This document shows positions 16,656-62,556 of a stretch of 64,000 nt of DNA, in pieces. The stretch covers positions 5,128 to 69,127 of the forward strand of contig JAJYPH010000001.1 of the NCBI GenBank assembly GCA_021795575.1. The letters are read 5' to 3'. The translations under genes and the position numbers were made by a program. Positions within the stretch are counted from its first letter, which is position 1. Each line of letters begins with the position of its first letter. Under the pieces are notes generated by a model. It was not told where the DNA came from and made no database searches. It saw only the letters and a list, made by a program, of their open reading frames with translations. This stretch comes from Bacillota bacterium. Its GTDB lineage: Bacteria; Bacillota; Sulfobacillia; Sulfobacillales; JAIMBI01.

Positions 16656-17267
16656 CTACGGCTCATACTCAGACCGGGATGCATGGTGGCGGCGCGACAA
16701 CTCCGTGGCGACGTCGTCCAGGCTCACCCCGGCCACGTGCAGCGCGAGCCACAGGTGGTAGATGAGGTCGGCGGCCTCGGCGCAGATGGGTCCTGGGTCG
16801 CCGTTTTTAGCCGCGAGCAGAAACTCCCCCGATTCCTCGCCCACCTTTCTGAGGACGCGGTCCAAGCCCTGGGTGGCCAGACGGCGCGTGTAGGACGCCT
16901 CGTCGCTCGCGCTGGCGAGCCGCTCCCGCTGTACGGCAAACAGCCGACTTAGCATGGCGGCAGGCAGATCGACGTCGCCAAAGCAGCTGGTCTGGCCCGT
17001 GTGACAGGCCCCTCGAGGTGCATGCACCTGGTACAGCAGCGCATCCTGGTCGCAGTCCCACACCATCTTTGCCAACTCGAGCCGCTGGCCGGAGGTAGCC
17101 CCCTTGTCCCACAGGGTGTGGCGGGACCGGCTCCAAAAGTGGGCCCGTCCGGTGGCCCGGGTGGCGGCGATGGCCTCCTGGTTGGTCCAGGCCAGCATGA
17201 GCACGGCCCCGGTATCGACGTCCTGGACCACTACCGGCAGCAGCGCTTCGGTCGCTGTCTCAGACAC
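16656..17267 (-). CDS. hisI: bifunctional phosphoribosyl-AMP cyclohydrolase / phosphoribosyl-ATP pyrophosphatase
   Basis: 203 aa. The HisI part has WSRSRHTLWDKGATSGQ and CHTGQTSCF. The HisE part has KVGEESGEFLLAAK and EAADLIYHL. Confidence 0.9.
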   Translation of the reverse strand: MSETATEALLPVVVQDVDTGAVLMLAWTNQEAIAATRATGRAHFWSRSRHTLWDKGATSGQRLELAKMVWDCDQDALLYQVHAPRGACHTGQTSCFGDVDLPAAMLSRLFAVQRERLASASDEASYTRRLATQGLDRVLRKVGEESGEFLLAAKNGDPGPICAEAADLIYHLWLALHVAGVSLDDVATELSRRHHASRSEYEP

Positions 17268-18012
17268 GCACGGCCACCCCCTGCTCAGTCAATTGCTGCT
17301 TTAACGCGGTGAGCGTGGTTTCGCCGCGGTGAAGCACCCCCGCCACCAGCGCTCCGGTCACGCCCGGCACCGCGAGGGCCGCCGCGAGATGTAGGGCGGT
17401 CCGGCCGCCCCCCGAGGCAATCACGGGCAGGTGGACCCCCGCCGCCGTGGCCAGCGCCTCGAGGTCATAGCCTTCCCCAGTGCCATCCCGGTCGATGGAC
17501 GTCAGCAACACTTCGCCCGCCCCTAGGGCGGCCACGTGGGCCACCCAGTCCCGAAGGGTCCAAGAGGTGCGGGTACGGCCCCCATCCGCGTACACGCGGT
17601 GCGTGTCCGCTGCGCGTCGGACGTCTATCGCCACCACCACCGCCTGGCTGCCGGCCTCGTCGGCTATCTGGCTCACCAGGTCAGGCGTGGCCAGCGCGGC
17701 CGAGTTGACCGACACCTTGTCCGCGCCGGCGGCGAGTACCGACAGCGCCCCGGCCCGGTCGCGAATGCCGCCCCCCACCGTGAGCGGAATCGCCAGCCGC
17801 CGGGCCGTGCGTTCCACCACGGCCAGGCTGGGGCCTCGGTGCTCTGCGCCGGCGGTAATGTCCAGCAGCACCAGCTCATCCGCCCCCTGGTCTTCATAGC
17901 GACGCGCCAGATCCTCGGGTCGGCCCAGCGAAATCAGTTCCTGGAACTGCACTCCCTTCACCACGCGGTCGGCCGCTACGTCCAAACACGCGATGAGCCG
18001 CGGCCTCAGCAC
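17260..18012 (-). CDS. hisF: imidazole glycerol phosphate synthase cyclase subunit
   Basis: MLRPRLIACLDV..VVKGVQF.., 250 aa TIM barrel. Overlaps hisA and hisIE. Confidence 0.9.
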   Translation of the reverse strand: MLRPRLIACLDVAADRVVKGVQFQELISLGRPEDLARRYEDQGADELVLLDITAGAEHRGPSLAVVERTARRLAIPLTVGGGIRDRAGALSVLAAGADKVSVNSAALATPDLVSQIADEAGSQAVVVAIDVRRAADTHRVYADGGRTRTSWTLRDWVAHVAALGAGEVLLTSIDRDGTGEGYDLEALATAAGVHLPVIASGGGRTALHLAAALAVPGVTGALVAGVLHRGETTLTALKQQLTEQGVAVRV

Positions 18013-18719
18013 CGGAGCACCGCCGCCACCGCCTCGGCCCCAAGCGACCCGTCGTACAGGGCGCGGCCCACGATCACGCCCGTCGCCCCAAGCCGCCGGA
18101 GGGCGTCGATGTCCTCCGCCCCGCGAATGCCCCCGGCCGCCGTCACGTGAAACCCTTCAGCGATCCACGCGGTTACAAGGTCCAGATCTGGACCGCGACC
18201 GGTGCCGTCTCGGTCCACCGCGGTGACGATGACCGCGCGCCACCCCAGGGCGCGAAGCCGGGAGGCCACCTGTTCCTTCGTAAGGGCGGCGTCAGCCCGC
18301 CATCCGTGGGTGGCCAGGGTCCCGCCCCGCCAATCGAGGCTCACCGCCACCTGCTCCGGTCCCATCTCGTGGGCAAACGCCGCCAGGAGGTCCGGGTGGG
18401 CCACCGCCGACCCCACCACCACCCGGCGTGCGCCCGCATCCAGCCAGCGCCGTGCCGCGTCGAGGCTCTGCACCCCGCCGCCCACCTGCACCGGCACGCC
18501 CAGAGCTGTGAGCCGCTGAACCTGACCCACCGATAGTCCCGTGCGTCCAAACGCGGCGGACAGATCCACGACGTGCAGCAACCGAGCGCCTGCCTTCACA
18601 AACGTGCGCGCCTGCGCGACGGGGTCATCGTGGTAAACCGTCACCCGGTGGGCATCGCCCTCCGTGAGGCGCACCACCCGTCCATCCAGCACGTCAATCG
18701 CCGGGATTACGCTGAACAT
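18006..18719 (-). CDS. hisA: ProFAR isomerase
   Basis: Conserved start MFSVIPAIDVLDGRVVRL at ATG 18719. The track ORF runs to 18968 through Gly/Arg filler inside hisH. Confidence 0.88.
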   Translation of the reverse strand: MFSVIPAIDVLDGRVVRLTEGDAHRVTVYHDDPVAQARTFVKAGARLLHVVDLSAAFGRTGLSVGQVQRLTALGVPVQVGGGVQSLDAARRWLDAGARRVVVGSAVAHPDLLAAFAHEMGPEQVAVSLDWRGGTLATHGWRADAALTKEQVASRLRALGWRAVIVTAVDRDGTGRGPDLDLVTAWIAEGFHVTAAGGIRGAEDIDALRRLGATGVIVGRALYDGSLGAEAVAAVLRC

Positions 18720-19318
18720 CGCATCCCCTGCTGGGCAAATGCGGTCAGCACGCGCCGTCCGTAGGCCCCGCTCCGCTCGGGGTGGAACTGCACGCCGGCC
18801 ACCAGCCCCCGCTGCACCGCACTCACAAATCCCCCGTGATAGTCGGTGACCGCCGTCGCCACCAGCTGATCCTGCGGCTTCACGGCAAACGCGTGGCAGA
18901 AGTATGCGTCGCCCGCCCCGGCCTCCCGCATCCATCCCGCGGCCGCGGTCGGGTGGACCTGGTTCCACCCCACGTGCGGGAGGGGGGCGGAGCCCACCTG
19001 CAGGCGGGTCACGGTCCCCGGCAGCACCCCGAGGCCCCGGCCCCCCTCTTCCGACGACTCAAACAACAGCTGCATGCCGAGACAGATGCCGAGCAGCGGC
19101 ACCGCGCCCACTCGGTTCCAGATCGCCTGGTCCATCCCGGTTGCGCTGAGCGCGCGCGCCGCGGCCGCAAAGTGGCCGACGCCCGGCAGCACCACGCCGC
19201 CGGCCTGCGCCACCACCTCCGGATCTTCCGTGACCACCACGTCGAGACCCAGCCGCTCCAGCGCCCACACCACGGACTGCAGATTGCCCCGCTTCAGGTT
19301 CACCACCGCCACCGTCAT
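18707..19318 (-). CDS. hisH: imidazole glycerol phosphate synthase glutamine amidotransferase subunit
   Basis: 203 aa with the GVGHF and LGICLGMQLL catalytic-Cys motif and the HPE triad element. Confidence 0.9.
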   Translation of the reverse strand: MTVAVVNLKRGNLQSVVWALERLGLDVVVTEDPEVVAQAGGVVLPGVGHFAAAARALSATGMDQAIWNRVGAVPLLGICLGMQLLFESSEEGGRGLGVLPGTVTRLQVGSAPLPHVGWNQVHPTAAAGWMREAGAGDAYFCHAFAVKPQDQLVATAVTDYHGGFVSAVQRGLVAGVQFHPERSGAYGRRVLTAFAQQGMRCSA

Positions 19319-19324
19319 GACGCA

Positions 19325-19963
19325 TCACTCCTCGATCGGTCCCGCGGTCTCTGACGCTGCCTCCGACAATTTATCTGGGACGTCCAACACTCCCTTGGTA
19401 CTCAGCAGGCCGGGACGCACGGCGGTGGCCATCCGGAGCGCCAGCCCCAGCGCCTTGAAGCCCGCCTCCCACTGGTGGTGGCGGTTCCTGCCCGCCCGCA
19501 TCTGCACGTGCACCGTGAGCTGTCCGCCGCGCGCCAGCCCAGTCCAAAATTCCTCCAGCACCTCGCCCTCCAGCCCCCCCACGGCGCCCGAGGGCATGTC
19601 GGCAAGCCAGCTGCCGGTGCGACCCGACAGGTCCACGGCCACCTCCACCCGAGCCTCGTCCATGGGCACGATGGCCCAGCCGTAGCGCGCGACGTCCCGA
19701 TAGCCGGGCCAGCGGCCCAGGATCGCGCGGCCCAGCACCAGGCCGGTGTCTTCCACCAGGTGGTGGGGATCGACCGCGACGTCGCCCGACGCCTCCACCA
19801 TCACGGGAACGCCCCAGGTGGTGGCGCAGGCCTGCAGCAGGTGGCCGAAGAACGGCACCGGCACCGTGATGCCCATGGCACCGCCCAACTCCATGGCCAC
19901 GCGGGTTTCCCGGGTGGTACGCGTCACCCGGCTGAGAAGCGGCGGCTCTGCAGGCTCCGTCAT
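19325..19963 (-). CDS. hisB: imidazoleglycerol-phosphate dehydratase
   Basis: RVTRTTRETRVAMEL.. with HHLVED and HHQWEA metal motifs. ATG 19963 overlaps the hisD stop (ATGA). Confidence 0.88.
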   Translation of the reverse strand: MTEPAEPPLLSRVTRTTRETRVAMELGGAMGITVPVPFFGHLLQACATTWGVPVMVEASGDVAVDPHHLVEDTGLVLGRAILGRWPGYRDVARYGWAIVPMDEARVEVAVDLSGRTGSWLADMPSGAVGGLEGEVLEEFWTGLARGGQLTVHVQMRAGRNRHHQWEAGFKALGLALRMATAVRPGLLSTKGVLDVPDKLSEAASETAGPIEE

Positions 19964-54764: not shown

Positions 54765-55196
54765 GTGGGGCTCATCCCGGTCGCCCCAGGCCCCGGGGGC
54801 CTTTTGGGTTCAGCGTTTCGTCGTGTTGCATCCGTCGCCAGACACCTCCTGCATTCCGCGGGCCGCGCTGCTGGCCCGTCTGTCGTTCATGCGCCTGCCC
54901 TGCGACGCAAGAGTCCGTCAAGACCAAACGCCATTCGCACGTCGTCCGTTGCACGACACCCATTCGCCGTGCGCGGTTGACCTCCTGCTGCACGGGCGTG
55001 CGCCCGCTCCCCCTCATCCTGGCTGTCGGGAGACGCCAGCGCTCCTGCTCATCCGACCGGGGGATTGGGGGCCATCCGGTCCCCGCGAAATGGGAACGAG
55101 CGGCGACTGTTCCGTGGGTCGCCCCGTTGCTAGCGTGAGTTTGTGCGCCCGGCACGGCCGGCCGCGACGAGAGTTGGAGAAGGGGCGGGGGGCGGA

Positions 55197-56372
55197 GTGG
55201 CGCTGAGAACCCAGACAATCCAGGCGGTCGTCATCGCGGACTACGACCAGACCCCCCAGGTGGAGTGGGTCGAGCTCGAGGAGCCTGGCCCCGGTGAGGT
55301 GGGCGTCCGTATTCAGGCCGCCGGGATCTGCCACAGTGACTGGCATGCGGTGACCGGCACCCTGCCGCTGCCCATGCCCATGGTGTTGGGCCACGAGGCG
55401 AGCGGCACGGTGACCCAGGTCGGCGCGGACGTCAAACGTGTAGTGGTGGGGGATCGGGTGGTCGTCACGTGGGTTCCCGTCTGCGGGCACTGCTTCTGGT
55501 GCCTGAACGGCGCCCCCGAGCTGTGTGAGGCCGCCAACCGAGGCGCGGTGGATGGCACGGGAGCGGACGGGCACACGCCGCTCCGCTGGCGTGGGCAGCC
55601 TCTGCACCGATTTTCCTGGAGCGGCACGCTGGCCACCGCCGCCGTGGTTCCGGAGTCCGCGGTGGTGCGCATCGGGTCCGACATGCCCTGGAGCGACGCG
55701 GCGCTTTTGGGTTGCGCGGTGCAAACCGGAGTCGGGGCGGCGCTGCGCGCCCCGATCGTCCCCGGCGACACGGTCGCGGTGCTCGGCCTGGGGGGAGTGG
55801 GACAGAACGTGGTTCAGGGGGCCCGCATCGCCGGCGCCGCGCGGATCATCGGGGTGGACCCCATCGGCTGGAAGCGCGACTTGGCCCGCGAGCTGGGGGC
55901 GACCGACACCGTGGACGCCTCCGAAGACGTTCTGACCGCCCTGCTGGATCTGACCCACGGGCGGGGCGTGGATGTGGCCTTCGAGGCCGTCGGCCACGTA
56001 CCCCTGATGGCGCTGGCGTTCAACGCCGTCCGCCGCGGCGGCACCGCCGTCATGGTGGGCGTCCCCGAACCCAATGCCGAGGTGTCGTTGAACGCGTTTG
56101 CGTTGCCCTCCCAGGAGAAAACGCTGACCGGGTCCTGGCTGGGCGGGTCCCACCCCGCGCGCGACATCCCGCGGCTCGAGGCGCTGTGGCGGTCTGGGCT
56201 GCTGAAGCTCGCGCCGCTCACCTCGCACACGTATGCGCTCCACGAGGTTCCCGAAGCCCTGAACGACCTCCTGACCGGTCGCGTCGCGCGGCCCGTGGTG
56301 GTGTTCGGGGATGCCGAGGCGCCGGCCACCCGTGGGCCGGCCAGTTTTCCAGCGCAAGTGGGGGAAGAATGA
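55197..56372 (+). CDS. zinc-dependent alcohol dehydrogenase (class III-like MDR)
   Basis: GICHSDWH, GHEASG and CGHCFWC structural-zinc motifs, plus the GLGGVG Rossmann motif. I prefer GTG 55197; the track starts at 55143. Confidence 0.85.
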   Translation: MALRTQTIQAVVIADYDQTPQVEWVELEEPGPGEVGVRIQAAGICHSDWHAVTGTLPLPMPMVLGHEASGTVTQVGADVKRVVVGDRVVVTWVPVCGHCFWCLNGAPELCEAANRGAVDGTGADGHTPLRWRGQPLHRFSWSGTLATAAVVPESAVVRIGSDMPWSDAALLGCAVQTGVGAALRAPIVPGDTVAVLGLGGVGQNVVQGARIAGAARIIGVDPIGWKRDLARELGATDTVDASEDVLTALLDLTHGRGVDVAFEAVGHVPLMALAFNAVRRGGTAVMVGVPEPNAEVSLNAFALPSQEKTLTGSWLGGSHPARDIPRLEALWRSGLLKLAPLTSHTYALHEVPEALNDLLTGRVARPVVVFGDAEAPATRGPASFPAQVGEE

Positions 56373-56373
56373 C

Positions 56374-56844
56374 ATGACGGTGTTTGCTGATGCCGATGTT
56401 CTTTATGAGATTCTCGGAGGATTCTTTGCGGACCGCGTCCGCTGGACGGACGAGGCGCACCTGATTCATCAGGTAGGCGGACCCATCGCGTTTATCTTCG
56501 AGCGGCCGGCCGCACAAATCTCCTGGGTGCCGGAGACCGCGTCCGTCCAGTCTCCAAAGACGCCTGGGTCGGTGCATGCTCCCTTTCGCCTGGTGTTCGG
56601 CCCGACCGGGCCCACGCCGCTTCTGACCTTTCGCCAGGACGGCGACACGGCGCACCGCTTCTGGCTCGGCCTCCTCGACCTCCAACAGGCGTTGGCCCGG
56701 CAGCAGGTGCGCGCTCAGGGGCCCTTGTCGCGCGCGATGAAACTGCTGCCGCATCTCGACGCCATCTACCCTCTGTACGCCGAATACCTGACCAGCCAGG
56801 GCCACGGGGATTTGCTCCCGCCGGCGGCGGGCCCCCGCCGGTGA
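56374..56844 (+). CDS. SCP2 sterol-carrier-like domain protein
   Basis: MTVFADADVLYEILGGFF.. ..RFWLGLLDLQQALARQQVRAQGPLSRAMKLLP is typical of SCP2-type lipid-binding proteins. ATG 56374 is 1 nt after the ADH stop, and the stop overlaps the next gene (GTGA). Confidence 0.7.
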   Translation: MTVFADADVLYEILGGFFADRVRWTDEAHLIHQVGGPIAFIFERPAAQISWVPETASVQSPKTPGSVHAPFRLVFGPTGPTPLLTFRQDGDTAHRFWLGLLDLQQALARQQVRAQGPLSRAMKLLPHLDAIYPLYAEYLTSQGHGDLLPPAAGPRR

Positions 56845-58316
56845 TCCCCGTGTGGGTGCCCGATGGGCCGTGGACCGACGGGGTACGGCACGCGGGCGCC
56901 GTGCCGCTCGACGTCGTGTCGCCGTCCGACGGATCGGTGTTTGCCACCGTCGGCGCGGCCGGCCCTGCCGACGTGCACCGTGCCGTCACCGCCGCCGAGA
57001 CCGCGTTTCAAGATCGGCGGTGGCGCGGCATCCCCGTGCTGGAGCGCCAGCGTGTGTTGGGACGCGCCGCACAAGCCCTCCGGGCGCACGACGGCGAACT
57101 GGCCCGCCTCATCGCGCACGAGATGGGGATGCCCGAGACGGCGGCGCGCTACGTCGAGGTGCCGTACGCCGCGGGCGTGCTGGACTACTATGCCGGGCTC
57201 GTGGCCAGTGTGGGCGGAGAAACCCTGCCCGTCGACATCCCGGGCGTGGACCCGGCGTTTCATGTGTTCACCACCCGTCGTCCCGTGGAGGTGGCCGCCC
57301 TCATCACCCCGTGGAACTTTCCGCTGCTGCTTCCCGTGTGGAAGGTGGCCGCGGCGCTGGCCGCCGGCACGGCGGTGGTGTTGAAGCCCGCCCCCGAGGC
57401 GCCGCTGACGGCGCTCGCGCTGGTGGCCCTACTGGAGTCGGCCGGGGTGCCTCCGGGGGTGGTCAACGTGCTGCCGGGCGGGGACGACGTGGGCGCGGCA
57501 CTCTGTGCCCACCCGGGGGTGCGGCACATTTCGTTCACCGGATCCACCGCCGTGGGGCGCGCGGTGGCGGCCCAGGCGGGCCAGGGGTTGAAGCGGGTGC
57601 AGCTGGAGCTGGGCGGCAAATCACCCGCCCTGGTGTTTGCCGATGCCGACTTGGACAACGCCGTCAGCCAGTGCCTGTTTGGCGTCTACTTCAACAGCGG
57701 GCAGGTGTGCCAGGCGGCCAGCCGGATTCTCGTCCACCAAAGCCAGTACGACGCGTTTCTGGAGCAGTTCACCGCACGGGCGCAGGCCCTTCGGGTGGGC
57801 GCGGCCACGGACCCCGACGCCGACTTGGGCCCGCTGGTGCGCGCGAACCAGCTGACCGTGATTCAGGACCATGTGGACCGTGCGCGGGCGGGAGGGGCGC
57901 GGTGCCTCTTGGGGGGCCACCCGTTGCCCGGTCCGGGATACTTTTACGCGCCCACCGTGCTGGCGGACGTCTCGCCGGAGCTCTCGGCGTTCCAAGCAGA
58001 GCTGTTTGGCCCCGTGGCGGTCGTGACCCCGTTCGCCACGGACCCGGAGGGGGTGGCGCTGGCCAACGCCACCCCCTATGGATTGGCGGCCGCCGTCTTC
58101 ACCCGCCACCTGCGCCGAGCCCTCAGCATCAGTGGCGAGCTCGCGGCCGGCACCGTGTGGATCAACACATCGCAGATGCAGAGCCCCACGGTGCCGTTCG
58201 GAGGCATGAAGGCGAGCGGGTGGGGCCGCGAGTTGGGCCGGGCGGGGTTGGAGGAGTTCCTCGACACCCAGGCGACGTGGATCGACCTCCACGAGGCGCC
58301 GCCGACGTACTTCTGA
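56841..58316 (+). CDS. NAD-dependent aldehyde dehydrogenase
   Basis: 491 aa with ELGGKSP (Glu), FNSGQVC (Cys) and ELFGPV motifs. Confidence 0.88.
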   Translation: MIPVWVPDGPWTDGVRHAGAVPLDVVSPSDGSVFATVGAAGPADVHRAVTAAETAFQDRRWRGIPVLERQRVLGRAAQALRAHDGELARLIAHEMGMPETAARYVEVPYAAGVLDYYAGLVASVGGETLPVDIPGVDPAFHVFTTRRPVEVAALITPWNFPLLLPVWKVAAALAAGTAVVLKPAPEAPLTALALVALLESAGVPPGVVNVLPGGDDVGAALCAHPGVRHISFTGSTAVGRAVAAQAGQGLKRVQLELGGKSPALVFADADLDNAVSQCLFGVYFNSGQVCQAASRILVHQSQYDAFLEQFTARAQALRVGAATDPDADLGPLVRANQLTVIQDHVDRARAGGARCLLGGHPLPGPGYFYAPTVLADVSPELSAFQAELFGPVAVVTPFATDPEGVALANATPYGLAAAVFTRHLRRALSISGELAAGTVWINTSQMQSPTVPFGGMKASGWGRELGRAGLEEFLDTQATWIDLHEAPPTYF

Positions 58317-58397: not shown

Positions 58398-59117
58398 GTG
58401 CTGAGAGCCTTGCTCTTGGATTTGGACGGCACGCTGTTGGATCTGGACGGCGACGCCTTTTTGGAAGCGTACCTGGCGGCCGTCACCCAGTGGATGGCAC
58501 CGATGGTGGAGCCGCCTCGCTTCAGCGAAGCTCTGTGGTCGGCGGCCGTCCCCGTGATGGTGAACCGCACCGGTCATCCCGGCCGCTCCAACAGCGACAT
58601 GCTGTGGGCGGCACTGGGCGACGCACTCCAGATGCCGGCGGCCGCCCTGCGGCAGCGATTCGAGGAATTTGTCCAGGGAGACCTCACCGGCATCTATCCA
58701 GGCGGATCGCCGATGCCCGGGGCGCACGACCTGGTCGCCGTCGGGCGGGCGCACGGGATGAAGCTGGCCGTGGCCACCATGCCCATCTACCCACGGCCGG
58801 TCATTGACGAGCGACTCCGGCGGGCGGGTCTGTTGGACGTGCCGTGGGACCTGGTGGCCACCGATGCCATGGAGTCCGTGAAGCCGCAGCCGGCCTACTA
58901 CCAAGAGCTCGCCGACCGGCTTGAGGTGGCGCCGGCCGACTGCCTGATGGTGGGCGACGACTACTTCCGCGACGTGGCCGCTCGCAAGGTGGGCATGGCG
59001 ACCGCCTACGTGGGCCCGCCCATGGCCGGCGTGGACACGGGTCCCTCGGGGACGCTCGGCGATTGGGTCCGAGCGCTGGAAAAGCCCGAGGGTCCGCTCG
59101 TACGGAGGACACCATGA
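58398..59117 (+). CDS. HAD-superfamily hydrolase
   Basis: Motif I LLLDLDGTLLD and a C-terminal MVGDDYFRD motif. GTG 58398 with GGAGGG upstream. Confidence 0.8.
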   Translation: MLRALLLDLDGTLLDLDGDAFLEAYLAAVTQWMAPMVEPPRFSEALWSAAVPVMVNRTGHPGRSNSDMLWAALGDALQMPAAALRQRFEEFVQGDLTGIYPGGSPMPGAHDLVAVGRAHGMKLAVATMPIYPRPVIDERLRRAGLLDVPWDLVATDAMESVKPQPAYYQELADRLEVAPADCLMVGDDYFRDVAARKVGMATAYVGPPMAGVDTGPSGTLGDWVRALEKPEGPLVRRTP

Positions 59118-60286
59118 ACAGCGACGCGATGGCGGCCGCTACGACCGCCAGGACGGGCGATGCGTCCAAAACGACCGGCAGATTACAAGGAGGCAGTGCG
59201 ATGCGTTTTGGCTTTGACTGGGGCGAGGACGCCTCGGAGTGGATGACGGCGATGCGCGCGGGCCTGGCGCGGACGCTGACCCGGCACGGGCACACGTTGT
59301 CGCCCACGCTCGTGGGGGCGGACCTGGTGTTTCACCAGGTAGATCCGGATCGCCCCCGCCCGTTTCGGCGCCAGTACCAGGCCACGTTTGTCGTGGCCAT
59401 GGTGGAGGGGACGCCCCTGCCGACGACCGAGCGCCTGAAAGCGCTCTACCCGATGCTGATCCGGTCCATCTCCAACCTGCTCATGTATGGCGGGGACGCC
59501 CCGGCCGGACAGGCCCGGGTGGCGTTGGTCACCCCGGAGCTGGGCAACTACACGGTCGACGGGCTGGCCGGCGACGCGTGGTTCGAGTCGGTGTACGAGC
59601 GGGTGGCGCCGCTGGCCGAGTCTCATCTGGTCATCAACAACGTGTTTGACGAGGACCTGCCCGACGAACTCGCGGACGGCACGGAGGTGACGCGGCAGCT
59701 GGCCGACGCGGCCCGCACGCTGGACCAGTGGCACCTGTTTCCCACGCCCTTTCCCATGTCGGAATTTCTGCCGCCCGAGGACATGCGGCAGATGCGGCAC
59801 CTGTTTGGCATCGGCGGGCTCTCCTACGGCAACCTGAGCGCCCGCTTGGATGCCGAGCGGTTCTGGATGTCCGCCAGCGGCGTGGACAAAGGCAAAGTGG
59901 GCACCGTGGGCCGGGACATTCTCCTGGTGAAAACGTACGACCCCGTGGCCAACGCCATGCGCATTTCGGTGCGCCCCGATTCCGACCCTCTCAGAGTGTC
60001 GGTGGATGCCGTCGAACACTGGGGCATTTACCGGCGACACCCGGGCATCGGGGCTCTGATTCACATCCACGCGTGGGTGGAGGGCGTCGTCAGCACGAGT
60101 GTCAACTATCCCTGCGGCACGATTGAGATGGGCCAGGCCATGTCCGACCTCTTGGACCAGGACCCCCATCCCGAGTCGACGATCATCGGACTGAAGAACC
60201 ACGGCATCACGGCCACCGGTCCCAATTTTCCCGACATCCTGGCCCGATTGGCTGACCGGGTGCGCCCCACCGTTCCCATGCAGTAG
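59114..60286 (+). CDS. fusion protein: unknown about 200-aa N-terminal domain plus class II aldolase/adducin domain
   Basis: The C-terminal half (GNLSARL..FWMSASGVDKG..HIHAW..KNHGITATG) is class II aldolase-like. ATG 59114 overlaps the HAD stop (ATGA), with GGAGG 5 nt upstream. Confidence 0.75.
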   Translation: MNSDAMAAATTARTGDASKTTGRLQGGSAMRFGFDWGEDASEWMTAMRAGLARTLTRHGHTLSPTLVGADLVFHQVDPDRPRPFRRQYQATFVVAMVEGTPLPTTERLKALYPMLIRSISNLLMYGGDAPAGQARVALVTPELGNYTVDGLAGDAWFESVYERVAPLAESHLVINNVFDEDLPDELADGTEVTRQLADAARTLDQWHLFPTPFPMSEFLPPEDMRQMRHLFGIGGLSYGNLSARLDAERFWMSASGVDKGKVGTVGRDILLVKTYDPVANAMRISVRPDSDPLRVSVDAVEHWGIYRRHPGIGALIHIHAWVEGVVSTSVNYPCGTIEMGQAMSDLLDQDPHPESTIIGLKNHGITATGPNFPDILARLADRVRPTVPMQ

Positions 60287-60353
60287 CGTGCGTAGCACCG
60301 ACGTCCGCCGTGCCTCCCGGTCATGGCGAGGGGCGACTAACGGGGGGAGTGGG

Positions 60354-61397
60354 ATGACCTCGGGGCCGATGGCGCCGTTGCAGCGGGTGGTGTGGGACGT
60401 AGGCGCGGGTCCGCCGGTCCGGTCCACGCCCCCCGCGGTCCCGCTGACGCTCCGCGAGGCGCGGCGCGTGGTTCGCCGCATGGCGCGCGCGGCCGAGCGC
60501 CCCACGGTGGTGCTGGCTGGTGTGGACCCGCTGGCGCCGTCGGACCGGGGCCTCCCCCTGTCGGGCTTGGTGGATGCGCTCACGTCCCACGGCTTCCCCA
60601 CCGGCTTGGCACTGCATCCCATGGCCCCCTGCACCACCCGGTCCCTGCGGGCTTGGGCCGCGATGGGGGTGCAGCACATCGTGCTGCACGTCGATACCGC
60701 GCTGGACAGCCCGCTTGCGGGCATCCCGGGGATGCGCCACACGGACGGCGCGACGCTGGTGTACGCCCGCGCCGTGGTGGCGGCGGGCATGCGGCTTTAT
60801 GCCACCACCCGCGTGACGGCGCTCACCGCGCCCGACCTGATGGGCATTGCCGCTCTGCTCCCCAGCCTCCAGGTGTCCCGGTGGGACGTGTCCTTCGTGG
60901 TGCCCACGGCCGCCGTCCCCCGGTCGGAGCCGCTCCGGGCGGTACGGCTGGAGCGGGTGCTGGCTTGGCTCGGCCGCTATGCCGCCAGCGCGCCGTTTCC
61001 GGTCACGACGGAGGGGGCGCCGCATTTCATCCGCCACCTGCATCCCCAGCCGGACGGACGGACGCTTGAACCGATGGTCCGGGACGCCCAGGGCATGCTG
61101 TACATCACGGCGGGCGGCGAGGTGTGGCCGGGACCGGACCTGCCGCTCAGTGCAGGCAATGTCCGCCAACACTCCCCGCAGGCGCTCTACCGGTCGGCGC
61201 CCCTGTTCAAAAGTCTGCGCAACGCCGCCGAGTTGGGGGGGCGCTGCGGGTGGTGTGCCTGGAGTCAGGTGTGCGGGGGATCCCGGGCTCGCGCCTATGC
61301 CCTCACCGGCGACGCCCTGGCACAGGATCCCCACTGCGCCCCGGTCATCGTGCCGGTGGCGCCTGGGCATCGGGGGCCACCGCAAACGCCACCTTGA
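60354..61397 (+). CDS. radical-SAM/SPASM-fold homologue lacking the CxxxCxxC cluster motif
   Basis: C-terminal GNVRQHSPQALYRSAPLFKSLRN..GGRCGWCAWSQVCGGSRARAYALTGDALAQDPHC is SPASM-like. The TIM-barrel core elements AGVDPL, SFVVPTA and TTEGAPHFIRH are present. The first 90 residues contain no Cys: WDVGAGPPVRSTPP sits where the SAM-cluster motif belongs. Confidence 0.7.
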   Translation: MTSGPMAPLQRVVWDVGAGPPVRSTPPAVPLTLREARRVVRRMARAAERPTVVLAGVDPLAPSDRGLPLSGLVDALTSHGFPTGLALHPMAPCTTRSLRAWAAMGVQHIVLHVDTALDSPLAGIPGMRHTDGATLVYARAVVAAGMRLYATTRVTALTAPDLMGIAALLPSLQVSRWDVSFVVPTAAVPRSEPLRAVRLERVLAWLGRYAASAPFPVTTEGAPHFIRHLHPQPDGRTLEPMVRDAQGMLYITAGGEVWPGPDLPLSAGNVRQHSPQALYRSAPLFKSLRNAAELGGRCGWCAWSQVCGGSRARAYALTGDALAQDPHCAPVIVPVAPGHRGPPQTPP

Positions 61398-62556
61398 TGG
61401 CGCCGTCCCGATGATGCGGCAAAGAGCGCAGAGCCGTGCGATACTCGTCCAGCGGGTACGCATGGGTTACCAGGGCGTCCAGCACGGGCGCGTCGGCCAG
61501 CCGGGTCACGGCCACTGGCAGCTGGTTGACGCCACCTGCGTAGTAGCCATAGGTTCCCACCACCGTGAGATTGCGGGTCCACAGCGGCGAGACGTCCGCC
61601 GGCGGGCGGGCCAGCGCCCCCAGCACCAGCACCTGACCCCCGGGTCGGCACAGCGCCAGCGCCTCCGCCATGGTCTGGGGACTCCCCACCGTATCCACCA
61701 CGACGTCGGACCCCCATGGATGCAGGGCGGGCGCTCCCCACATGGGGGGCGCCAGCGGGTGGCCCGCCAGCACCGCCCGCTCGCGGACGCCCCCGCCCAC
61801 CAGACGGTGCGCCCCCAGCACCCGCGCCATGCTTCCCTGGTGGCGGTGGCGCACCTGTACCACCACCTCCGCCTCGTCGAAGCCCGCTAGGGCCCAGGTG
61901 GCCAGCAGGCCCAACGTCCCGGCCCCCAGCACCAGCACGCTCTCCACCTTCTCCCAGCGCAGGCGGGCCAACCCGGCCAGCACAATCGCCAGGGGCTCGG
62001 CCAGCACCGCGCGCCGGAGCGGCAGGCGATCCGGCACTGGGATCAGCTGGGCCGCCGGCGCCCACAGGCGCGTCGCCCAGCCCCCGGGCAGCTGACCGTG
62101 GAAGCCCAGCAGGAGGCCCGGTCCCAGCCCCTGATCCGCTCGCCGTTCACAGCCGTCGTCCGCGTGTGCGGCACAGGCCCGGCACAGCGGCAAGCCGCGC
62201 GCGCGGCATCCCAGCGACGGGTCCACCACCACCGCCGCGCGGGTGTCCAAGCGCCGCGCCACCACCTCATGCCCCAGAACGGCCGGGAACTGCGTCAACG
62301 GGGCCAAATAAGGGGAGGACCGCCCCGTGATGATGCCCAGATCCGACCCGCAGATGCCACTCCAGACGGGCTCCAGAGCCACCCAATCCCCATCGGAGGG
62401 GAGATGCGGGGGCGGCAGCGCTTCCAGACGCATGGCGCCCAAACCCAGGGCCAGCGCCGACCCGGGTGCCAGTCGCTGCGCCGCCACGCGGGCGGGGTTC
62501 AGGTGGTACCTGAGCCCTTGGTACGACTCGTCGGACCCGTCGGGTCTCACGACCAT
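61345..62556 (-). CDS. zinc-binding MDR-family dehydrogenase
   Basis: GICGSDL, LGHEVV and a GAGTLGLL Rossmann motif. ATG 62556 with GGGAGGGGGG upstream. The 3' end overlaps the convergent SPASM gene by 53 nt. Confidence 0.8.
   Translation of the reverse strand: MVVRPDGSDESYQGLRYHLNPARVAAQRLAPGSALALGLGAMRLEALPPPHLPSDGDWVALEPVWSGICGSDLGIITGRSSPYLAPLTQFPAVLGHEVVARRLDTRAAVVVDPSLGCRARGLPLCRACAAHADDGCERRADQGLGPGLLLGFHGQLPGGWATRLWAPAAQLIPVPDRLPLRRAVLAEPLAIVLAGLARLRWEKVESVLVLGAGTLGLLATWALAGFDEAEVVVQVRHRHQGSMARVLGAHRLVGGGVRERAVLAGHPLAPPMWGAPALHPWGSDVVVDTVGSPQTMAEALALCRPGGQVLVLGALARPPADVSPLWTRNLTVVGTYGYYAGGVNQLPVAVTRLADAPVLDALVTHAYPLDEYRTALRSLPHHRDGAIKVAFAVAPDAQAPPAR

Follow-up and report, generated by a model that had tools for sequence, protein, structure and literature searches.

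A selectively maintained radical SAM/SPASM homologue from uncultured Bacillota that has lost its SAM-cleaving core and probably keeps a single auxiliary Fe-S site

The radical S-adenosylmethionine (SAM) superfamily is one of the largest among enzymes, and in annotation pipelines any homologue is usually labelled a "radical SAM protein". A radical SAM/SPASM family of Halobacteria, TIGR04347, is curated as "pseudo-SAM" in NCBIfam; judged by this name it presumably lacks the radical SAM cluster motif, and it would then be of the same kind as the protein studied here. A further relative is AhbD (TIGR04545), the radical SAM heme b synthase, in which an auxiliary [4Fe-4S] cluster is held by a C-terminal CX2CX5CX20-38C motif (PMC10452713) and has been connected with electron transfer (PMC6013774). 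In non-methanogenic archaea, AhbD has none of the four AuxI Cys residues (PMC10452713). A literature search on TIGR04053, on TIGR04347, on "pseudo-SAM" proteins and on radical SAM homologues without the motif retrieved nothing relevant. Here we describe a 347-amino-acid protein encoded near the end of a 64,000-nucleotide stretch of contig JAJYPH010000001.1 from a Bacillota bacterium, which is called the window throughout. It is probably a selectively maintained pseudo-radical-SAM protein of TIGR04053/AhbD-like descent with a non-radical role based on a single iron-sulfur (Fe-S) cluster. The features of its gene are as follows.

60354..61397, + strand: pseudo-radical-SAM/SPASM gene, 347 amino acids; open reading frame from ATG 60354 to the stop codon ending at 61397; derived from the TIGR04053/AhbD-like family
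60342..60349, + strand: Shine-Dalgarno-like GGGGGGAG, read from the sequence, ending 4 nt before the ATG
60393..60434, + strand: WDVGAGPPVRSTPP (residues 14-27), what is left of the radical SAM cluster loop, with all three Cys gone and 7 residues shorter (alignments and column test)
60516..60533, + strand: residues 55-60 (AGVDPL), degenerate GGD/GGE SAM-binding motif with G57 changed to V (column test)
61245..61337, + strand: residues 298-328, CX2CX5CX20C (C298, C301, C307 and C328), AuxII-type [4Fe-4S] ligand block predicted from the sequence (column test)

In the column test, 93 alignment columns conserved at 85% or more in 112 canonical homologues were checked in the window protein and four database orthologues, and this clade retained 53 of the 93. 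The three columns of the CX3CX2C triad were occupied by Cys in 100% of the canonical homologues, and the first Cys of the window protein is found at residue 93. W14 aligned to the invariant Trp of "WE(V/L)TRAC", and "GAGPPVR" stood where "TRACxLxCxHCRA" was expected, with a 7-residue deletion. At the G57 column, 100% of the canonical members had G, and each of the five pseudo-clade sequences had V. Further core columns were altered as well (R62P, P87, S88, S112H, G115, H121L, D122A/P, R125P, G129, Q149Y/H, N151T, F180, G186A and R187A/T), and the columns of S112, H121, D122, R125, Q149, N151, G186 and R187 were at least 97% conserved in the canonical members. Judged from the alignment, these altered positions probably include SAM contacts. 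Since the SAM-cleaving cluster loop and most SAM-binding residues have been lost, the protein would generate no 5'-deoxyadenosyl radical.

The C-terminal block was kept. Residues 263 to 328 contain 30 conserved family columns, and every one of these was intact, including the four Cys and the invariant CGGSRARA, and the flanks of the Cys block (CGGSRARAYA and DP.C) were identical to those of the canonical family members. The only Cys residues of the protein are at positions 93, 298, 301, 307 and 328, and C93 was variable among the orthologues (F in L001), so that four conserved Cys are left. Moreover, R227, Y279, R311 and R313 were invariant in a 98-sequence alignment and retained here, and R280 and R289 were nearly invariant; an anionic ligand might be bound at a site lined by these six residues.

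The original prediction, made from the letters of the window, had placed the 347-residue frame where we find it and had described it as free of Cys in its first 90 residues, with five Cys in total, the CxxxCxxC motif gone, a C-terminal CxxCx5C...C block kept and several core strands still recognisable. Profile alignment and the column test bore this description out, and the strands correspond as AGVDPL to TGGDPL, SFVVPTAA to FFLVPTGR and TTEGAPHFIRH to TTEAPHYRR. The upstream SPASM half had been listed among the parts without Cys, which is true, but it is not a loss. AuxI-type Cys were absent from the 112 canonical homologues too, where the consensus reads "DGxGF...PSGF", and by this alignment their absence is an ancestral trait of the family and not part of the decay.

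The protein descends from a TIGR04053/AhbD-like radical SAM enzyme, of which the partial TIM barrel and the C-terminal SPASM/twitch-type subdomain have been kept. We propose that the four-Cys CX2CX5CX20C block, which is under very strong constraint, would hold one AuxII-type [4Fe-4S] cluster fully ligated by Cys, and the ancestral barrel cavity would still bind a ligand. The protein might then work as a redox relay, a sensor or a carrier, possibly in the service of the adjacent dehydrogenases. From the residues retained, cluster binding and a redox or ligand-binding role are most likely.

The family membership of the protein was examined with profile models. NCBIfam TIGR04053 was the best-scoring family (E = 2.9e-52, 178 bits), yet below its curated cutoff of 395 bits, and AhbD TIGR04545 was the second-best (E = 1.6e-31, 110 bits compared to a cutoff of 500, residues 47-351). 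Pfam PF04055 reached 13.8 bits (E = 0.065), under its gathering threshold of 29.5; the five clade members all scored 0-17 bits with this model, and the canonical homologues nearest to them 62-65 bits. The TIGR04085 domain model stayed at 16 bits (cutoff 27), TIGR04347 gave 36 bits against a cutoff of 525 with the match confined to the C-terminal 64 residues, and PF13186, the Pfam SPASM model, had no match to the 347-residue protein. By the thresholds of these models the window protein lies outside TIGR04053, AhbD, TIGR04347 and Pfam Radical_SAM, being a derived offshoot of TIGR04053.

The nearest canonical TIGR04053-type members were 40-42% identical to the window protein. It is collinear with this family over its whole length and shares with it the C-terminal CX2CX5CX20C motif and the lack of AuxI-type Cys; however, CX3CX2C, GGD and approximately 30 other invariant core residues are missing from it. 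The auxiliary-cluster motif is also common to AhbD, and the missing AuxI Cys recall the AhbDs of non-methanogenic archaea. Nevertheless, the window protein differs from AhbD by the absence of the radical SAM cluster motif and by its neighbours, which are dehydrogenases, a HAD phosphatase and an aldolase-like protein, with no heme-biosynthesis genes nearby. TIGR04347 belongs to another lineage and scores alongside AhbC/NirJ1-type models, whereas the window protein derives from TIGR04053. The pseudo-SAM/SPASM kind has already been curated by NCBI for haloarchaea, and on the profile scores the window clade is a further member of other descent.

A single-sequence search of the PDB with the window protein matched nothing, and a family profile was needed; with this profile, PqqE, BlsE, SkfB, MoaA and viperin were matched among the solved structures. 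The AlphaFold2 model, built with 98 homologues in the alignment, had a predicted local distance difference test score (pLDDT) of 88.8 and a predicted template modelling score (pTM) of 0.88, and consisted of six beta-alpha units that form a partial TIM barrel, with a small domain after it at the C-terminus. The best Foldseek matches of the model were PqqE (6c8v), SuiB (5v1q), CteB (5why) and anSME (4k37), with a probability of 1.00, E-values of 4e-13 to 1e-8, query-normalised TM-scores of 0.58-0.67 and 13-19% identity. The matches covered the barrel and the C-terminal domain, and viperin and MoaA were also matched with a probability of 1.00. PqqE, SuiB, CteB and anSME differ from the window protein in their clusters, as each has a radical SAM cluster and most have two auxiliary ones in addition. 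Profile comparison and modelled fold agree that, as had been predicted, the window protein is a radical SAM/SPASM protein by descent and fold.

Four close homologues from metagenome or metagenome-assembled genome (MAG) data were 79-92% identical to the window protein (343-347 amino acids), with no Pfam match in any of them, and a fifth orthologue, 95% identical, was present in an uncultured Bacillota MAG. All six sequences were full length without a stop or frameshift, had the same loop deletion, and differed by only two short in-frame indels. With 79-95% identity and many synonymous differences, the orthologues are not assembly copies of one sequence. The gene order around them was conserved (L001-L012). 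The mean ratio of nonsynonymous to synonymous substitution rates (dN/dS; Nei-Gojobori, codons 1-330) was 0.19, with a bootstrap confidence interval (CI) of 0.15-0.24 and a dS of approximately 0.46. The degenerate N-terminal core had a dN/dS of 0.24 (CI 0.18-0.31), the C-terminal third 0.11 and the Cys block 0.06. In the last 17 codons dN/dS exceeded 1 at a low dS, because this tail overlaps the 3' end of a convergent gene, so that the other strand is presumably constrained. The neighbouring genes had dN/dS values of 0.07-0.21 (0.21 for an alpha/beta hydrolase gene and 0.07-0.17 for the others). The window gene is clearly under purifying selection, though on the relaxed side when compared to its neighbours.

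The original prediction had argued for a retained non-catalytic or re-purposed role rather than decay, and the intact orthologues, together with dN/dS values below 1 for the whole gene and for its core, support this view. The window clade, although certainly no radical SAM enzyme, is kept by selection.

A sequencing error, a hidden N-terminus or an upstream exon was also considered and was ruled out. The upstream stop is no more than 67 nt away from the gene, the alternative start GTG 60288 (the beginning of the mechanically called open reading frame) would add 22 residues without any Cys, and six independent assemblies share the same deletion. ATG 60354 was chosen over GTG 60288 since the equivalent ATG, and never the GTG, is used as the start in all orthologue gene calls. 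The region has approximately 70% G+C, and the G+C content at third codon positions of the gene (0.87) equals that of its neighbours, which supports the + frame as coding despite the many overlapping open reading frames typical of high-G+C DNA.

To survey the wider family, 1.84 billion cluster representatives (50%-identity clusters) were searched exhaustively with HMMER, which gave 2249 matches; the best 150 of these were analysed (P0121-P0269), and 106 were full length. CX3CX2C was missing in 37 of the 106 full-length representatives, and the four C-terminal AuxII Cys were kept in all 37. GGD/E was kept in 8 of the 37 Cys-less representatives, compared to 68 of the 69 canonical ones. When ten Cys-less relatives were scored, TIGR04053 was the best model for every one, yet below its cutoff, and none reached TIGR04347. 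Cys-less relatives were found in a Sulfobacillus benefaciens MAG (PSR32080.1) and in a Thermaerobacter MAG (MDA8194021.1), the Sulfobacillus form having its own small clade of Pfam-negative relatives, and deeper Cys-less relatives, 49% and 31% identical, were also full length. The single triad Cys that are retained differ between the Cys-less lineages, and thus the triad was lost several times independently. A neighbour-joining tree with Fitch parsimony gave approximately 21 independent losses, which is a rough estimate, possibly inflated by long-branch effects, which can place fast-evolving pseudo-forms nearest to canonical sequences that evolve slowly, and "several" therefore rests on the retained Cys subsets. 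A metagenome scan with the clade alignment was uninformative, returning four AhbC/AhbD-like pairs beside hemL and one short C-terminal match (L024, a 2.7-kb contig).

We speculated that TIGR04053-like proteins carry a second, non-radical function in the barrel cavity and the AuxII [4Fe-4S] domain, which would be of enough value to survive each decay of the SAM-cleaving half; this would have happened in perhaps a dozen independent lineages or more, among them Sulfobacillus-/Thermaerobacter-type Bacillota. This is a tentative idea, to which we give somewhat less than an even chance. If it is true, the Cys-less forms would not be isolated relics but would form a family, so far unrecognised, of Fe-S proteins with a radical SAM scaffold and a redox, sensor or carrier role. 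The window clade and the recurrent loss of the triad, in about one third of the sampled clusters, warn against inferring radical chemistry from family membership. Furthermore, recurrent loss with a retained auxiliary site points to a stand-alone function of the SPASM/twitch auxiliary domain, and natural "AuxII-only" proteins would offer a route to study an auxiliary cluster without an interfering radical SAM cluster. The practical impact is modest until the function is found, the clade being narrow and uncultured.

The genes around the window gene, and its overlap with the convergent gene, are the following.

55143..56372, + strand: Zn-alcohol dehydrogenase, start uncertain (Pfam, NCBIfam); first gene of the co-directional string
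56374..56844, + strand: 156-residue protein with no Pfam, NCBIfam or meaningful PDB match; conserved, dN/dS 0.17
56841..58316, + strand: aldehyde dehydrogenase (Pfam, NCBIfam)
58398..59117, + strand: HAD phosphatase (Pfam, NCBIfam)
59201..60286, + strand: 361-residue protein with a C-terminal class II aldolase-like domain (PF00596, E = 3e-14); start taken from the orthologues' gene calls
61345..62556, - strand: Zn-dependent medium-chain dehydrogenase/reductase (MDR)-like gene of the polyol type, 403 residues (Pfam ADH_N, ADH_zinc_N)
61345..61397, no strand assigned: 53-nt overlap of the 3' ends of the pseudo-radical-SAM gene and the convergent MDR dehydrogenase gene (open reading frame coordinates)

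The gene had been predicted to be the last of a tightly coupled operon. It is indeed the last of the co-directional string, but tight coupling is too strong a term, as it lies 67 nt after the preceding gene, the non-coupled gaps measure 67-83 nt, and translational coupling is limited to the first three genes (the Zn-alcohol dehydrogenase, the 156-residue protein and the aldehyde dehydrogenase). Among these, the 156-residue gene starts 1 nt past the alcohol dehydrogenase stop and its end overlaps the aldehyde dehydrogenase start by 4 nt. No convincing terminator or promoter was found in the gaps of 67-83 nt between the genes of the string.

The 53-nt overlap at the 3' end had the same length in all four orthologous loci checked (L001, L005, L008 and L010). 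The best PDB matches of the MDR dehydrogenase were Zn-containing alcohol dehydrogenases and polyol (sorbitol and ketose) dehydrogenases, and its gene is followed by that of the alpha/beta hydrolase, on the opposite strand. In another locus (L014, 2775-5290), the canonical member P0008 is followed by a co-directional 404-residue MDR dehydrogenase, which is 46% identical to that of the window. Judged from these sequences, the radical-SAM-type gene and the MDR dehydrogenase gene may be an ancestral pair, and the MDR dehydrogenase is a possible partner of the window protein. The contexts of the canonical homologues were heterogeneous (Crp/Fnr, ScdA/hemerythrin, NnrS, HemN-like and molybdenum cofactor genes, Usp and cytochromes c), and the shared neighbourhoods are too thin for a functional call.

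Several other explanations have to be weighed against a maintained, non-radical Fe-S protein. The main rival is that the window protein is a non-catalytic regulatory or scaffolding partner of a canonical TIGR04053-type paralogue, in a hetero-oligomer of which only the canonical subunit cleaves SAM. The nearest canonical sequence, P0005 (42% identity), came from the same sequencing run (SRR25885123) as the orthologue P0003, on a contig of the same G+C content (0.694 compared to 0.698); canonical members occur in the related Thermaerobacterales (P0074), and two radical SAM genes stand side by side in the related loci L016 and L018. However, P0005 and P0003 may come from different genomes. The 64-kb window holds no canonical paralogue (tblastn with P0005 and P0008 matched this gene only), nor does any syntenic locus have one beside the gene, and we consider such a partnership rather unlikely. 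That the protein might still be a radical SAM enzyme of a non-canonical type, with SAM at the cluster of the C-terminal Cys or with cluster ligands supplied in trans, is suggested by the barrel, which is intact in the predicted AlphaFold2 model, and by the non-canonical cluster motifs of ThiC, HmdB and Dph2 elsewhere in the superfamily. Nevertheless, only four conserved Cys are available, in a fully ligated AuxII-type motif that would leave no open iron site for SAM. GGD/E and many invariant core positions have been replaced here along with the triad, and GGD/E is also gone in 29 of the 37 Cys-less lineages, which makes this enzyme very unlikely.

A reading without any Fe-S cluster, in which the four Cys bind zinc or form disulfides in a structural or ligand-binding domain, has nothing specific in its favour. 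Against it, the motif and its flanks are those of the canonical members, and the homologous motif binds [4Fe-4S] in AhbD, so that we regard it as very doubtful. A plain pseudogene, that is, a recently inactivated enzyme gene whose frame stayed open by chance, would fit the destroyed catalytic motifs and a dN/dS somewhat above that of most neighbours. It is already contradicted and hardly credible, since six lineages at a dS of approximately 0.46 all keep the full-length frame with no more than the two short in-frame indels, the CI of dN/dS excludes 1 even in the degenerate core, the Cys block has a dN/dS of 0.06, and the deeper Cys-less relatives are full length as well.

A maintained protein with a single Fe-S cluster is therefore the explanation that we retain, and there are observations that weigh against it. 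At 0.22 over the whole length, its dN/dS was the highest of the eight locus genes compared, and constraint is thus relaxed relative to most neighbours. The orthologues all come from one narrow uncultured Bacillota clade, so that conserved synteny says little on function, and the single additional locus L014 is all that connects the gene with the MDR dehydrogenase. The family search ranks its matches largely by the conserved C-terminal block and hence favours sequences that kept it. Finally, Fe-S or ligand binding by the window protein is a prediction.

Some minor observations were made on the surrounding genes and related loci. The Zn-alcohol dehydrogenase at 55143-56372 scored best on TIGR03989 (NDMA-dependent alcohol dehydrogenase of the Rxyl_3153 type), with 330 bits compared to a cutoff of 440; this family is tied to mycofactocin, which is matured by a radical SAM/SPASM enzyme. 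The 361-residue protein is the most constrained of the locus (dN/dS 0.07), has HxH and HG motifs in its aldolase-like part, and matches no Pfam or PDB entry over its N-terminal 200 residues or so.

Canonical TIGR04053 genes adjoin Crp/Fnr-type regulators and ScdA/hemerythrin/NnrS-type genes in L016 (5200-9124) and L017 (4447-7794), and in P0065 (586 amino acids) a homologue is fused to a Crp-like module with cyclic nucleotide-binding and helix-turn-helix parts. The Crp/Fnr and NnrS contexts and the P0065 fusion suggest that the parent family belongs to an anaerobic or nitrosative-stress regulon. According to reviews, an AhbD-like enzyme may act as an anaerobic coproheme decarboxylase in Gram-positive bacteria (PMC10114771), which is only a lead to the function of the parent family.

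In L020 (6472-10105), which came from the metagenome scan, two adjacent canonical radical SAM genes of the NirJ/AhbC/AhbD type, with full sets of SPASM Cys, directly follow hemL; they belong to a standard heme cluster of the siroheme route that has no relation to the window locus. In L001, from a relative of the window organism, the syntenic locus has a gene for sulfocyanin-like SoxE nearby (16878-19633), together with yabP and yabQ, which are sporulation genes; this fits a spore-forming, Sulfobacillus/Thermaerobacter-like, high-G+C Bacillota host.

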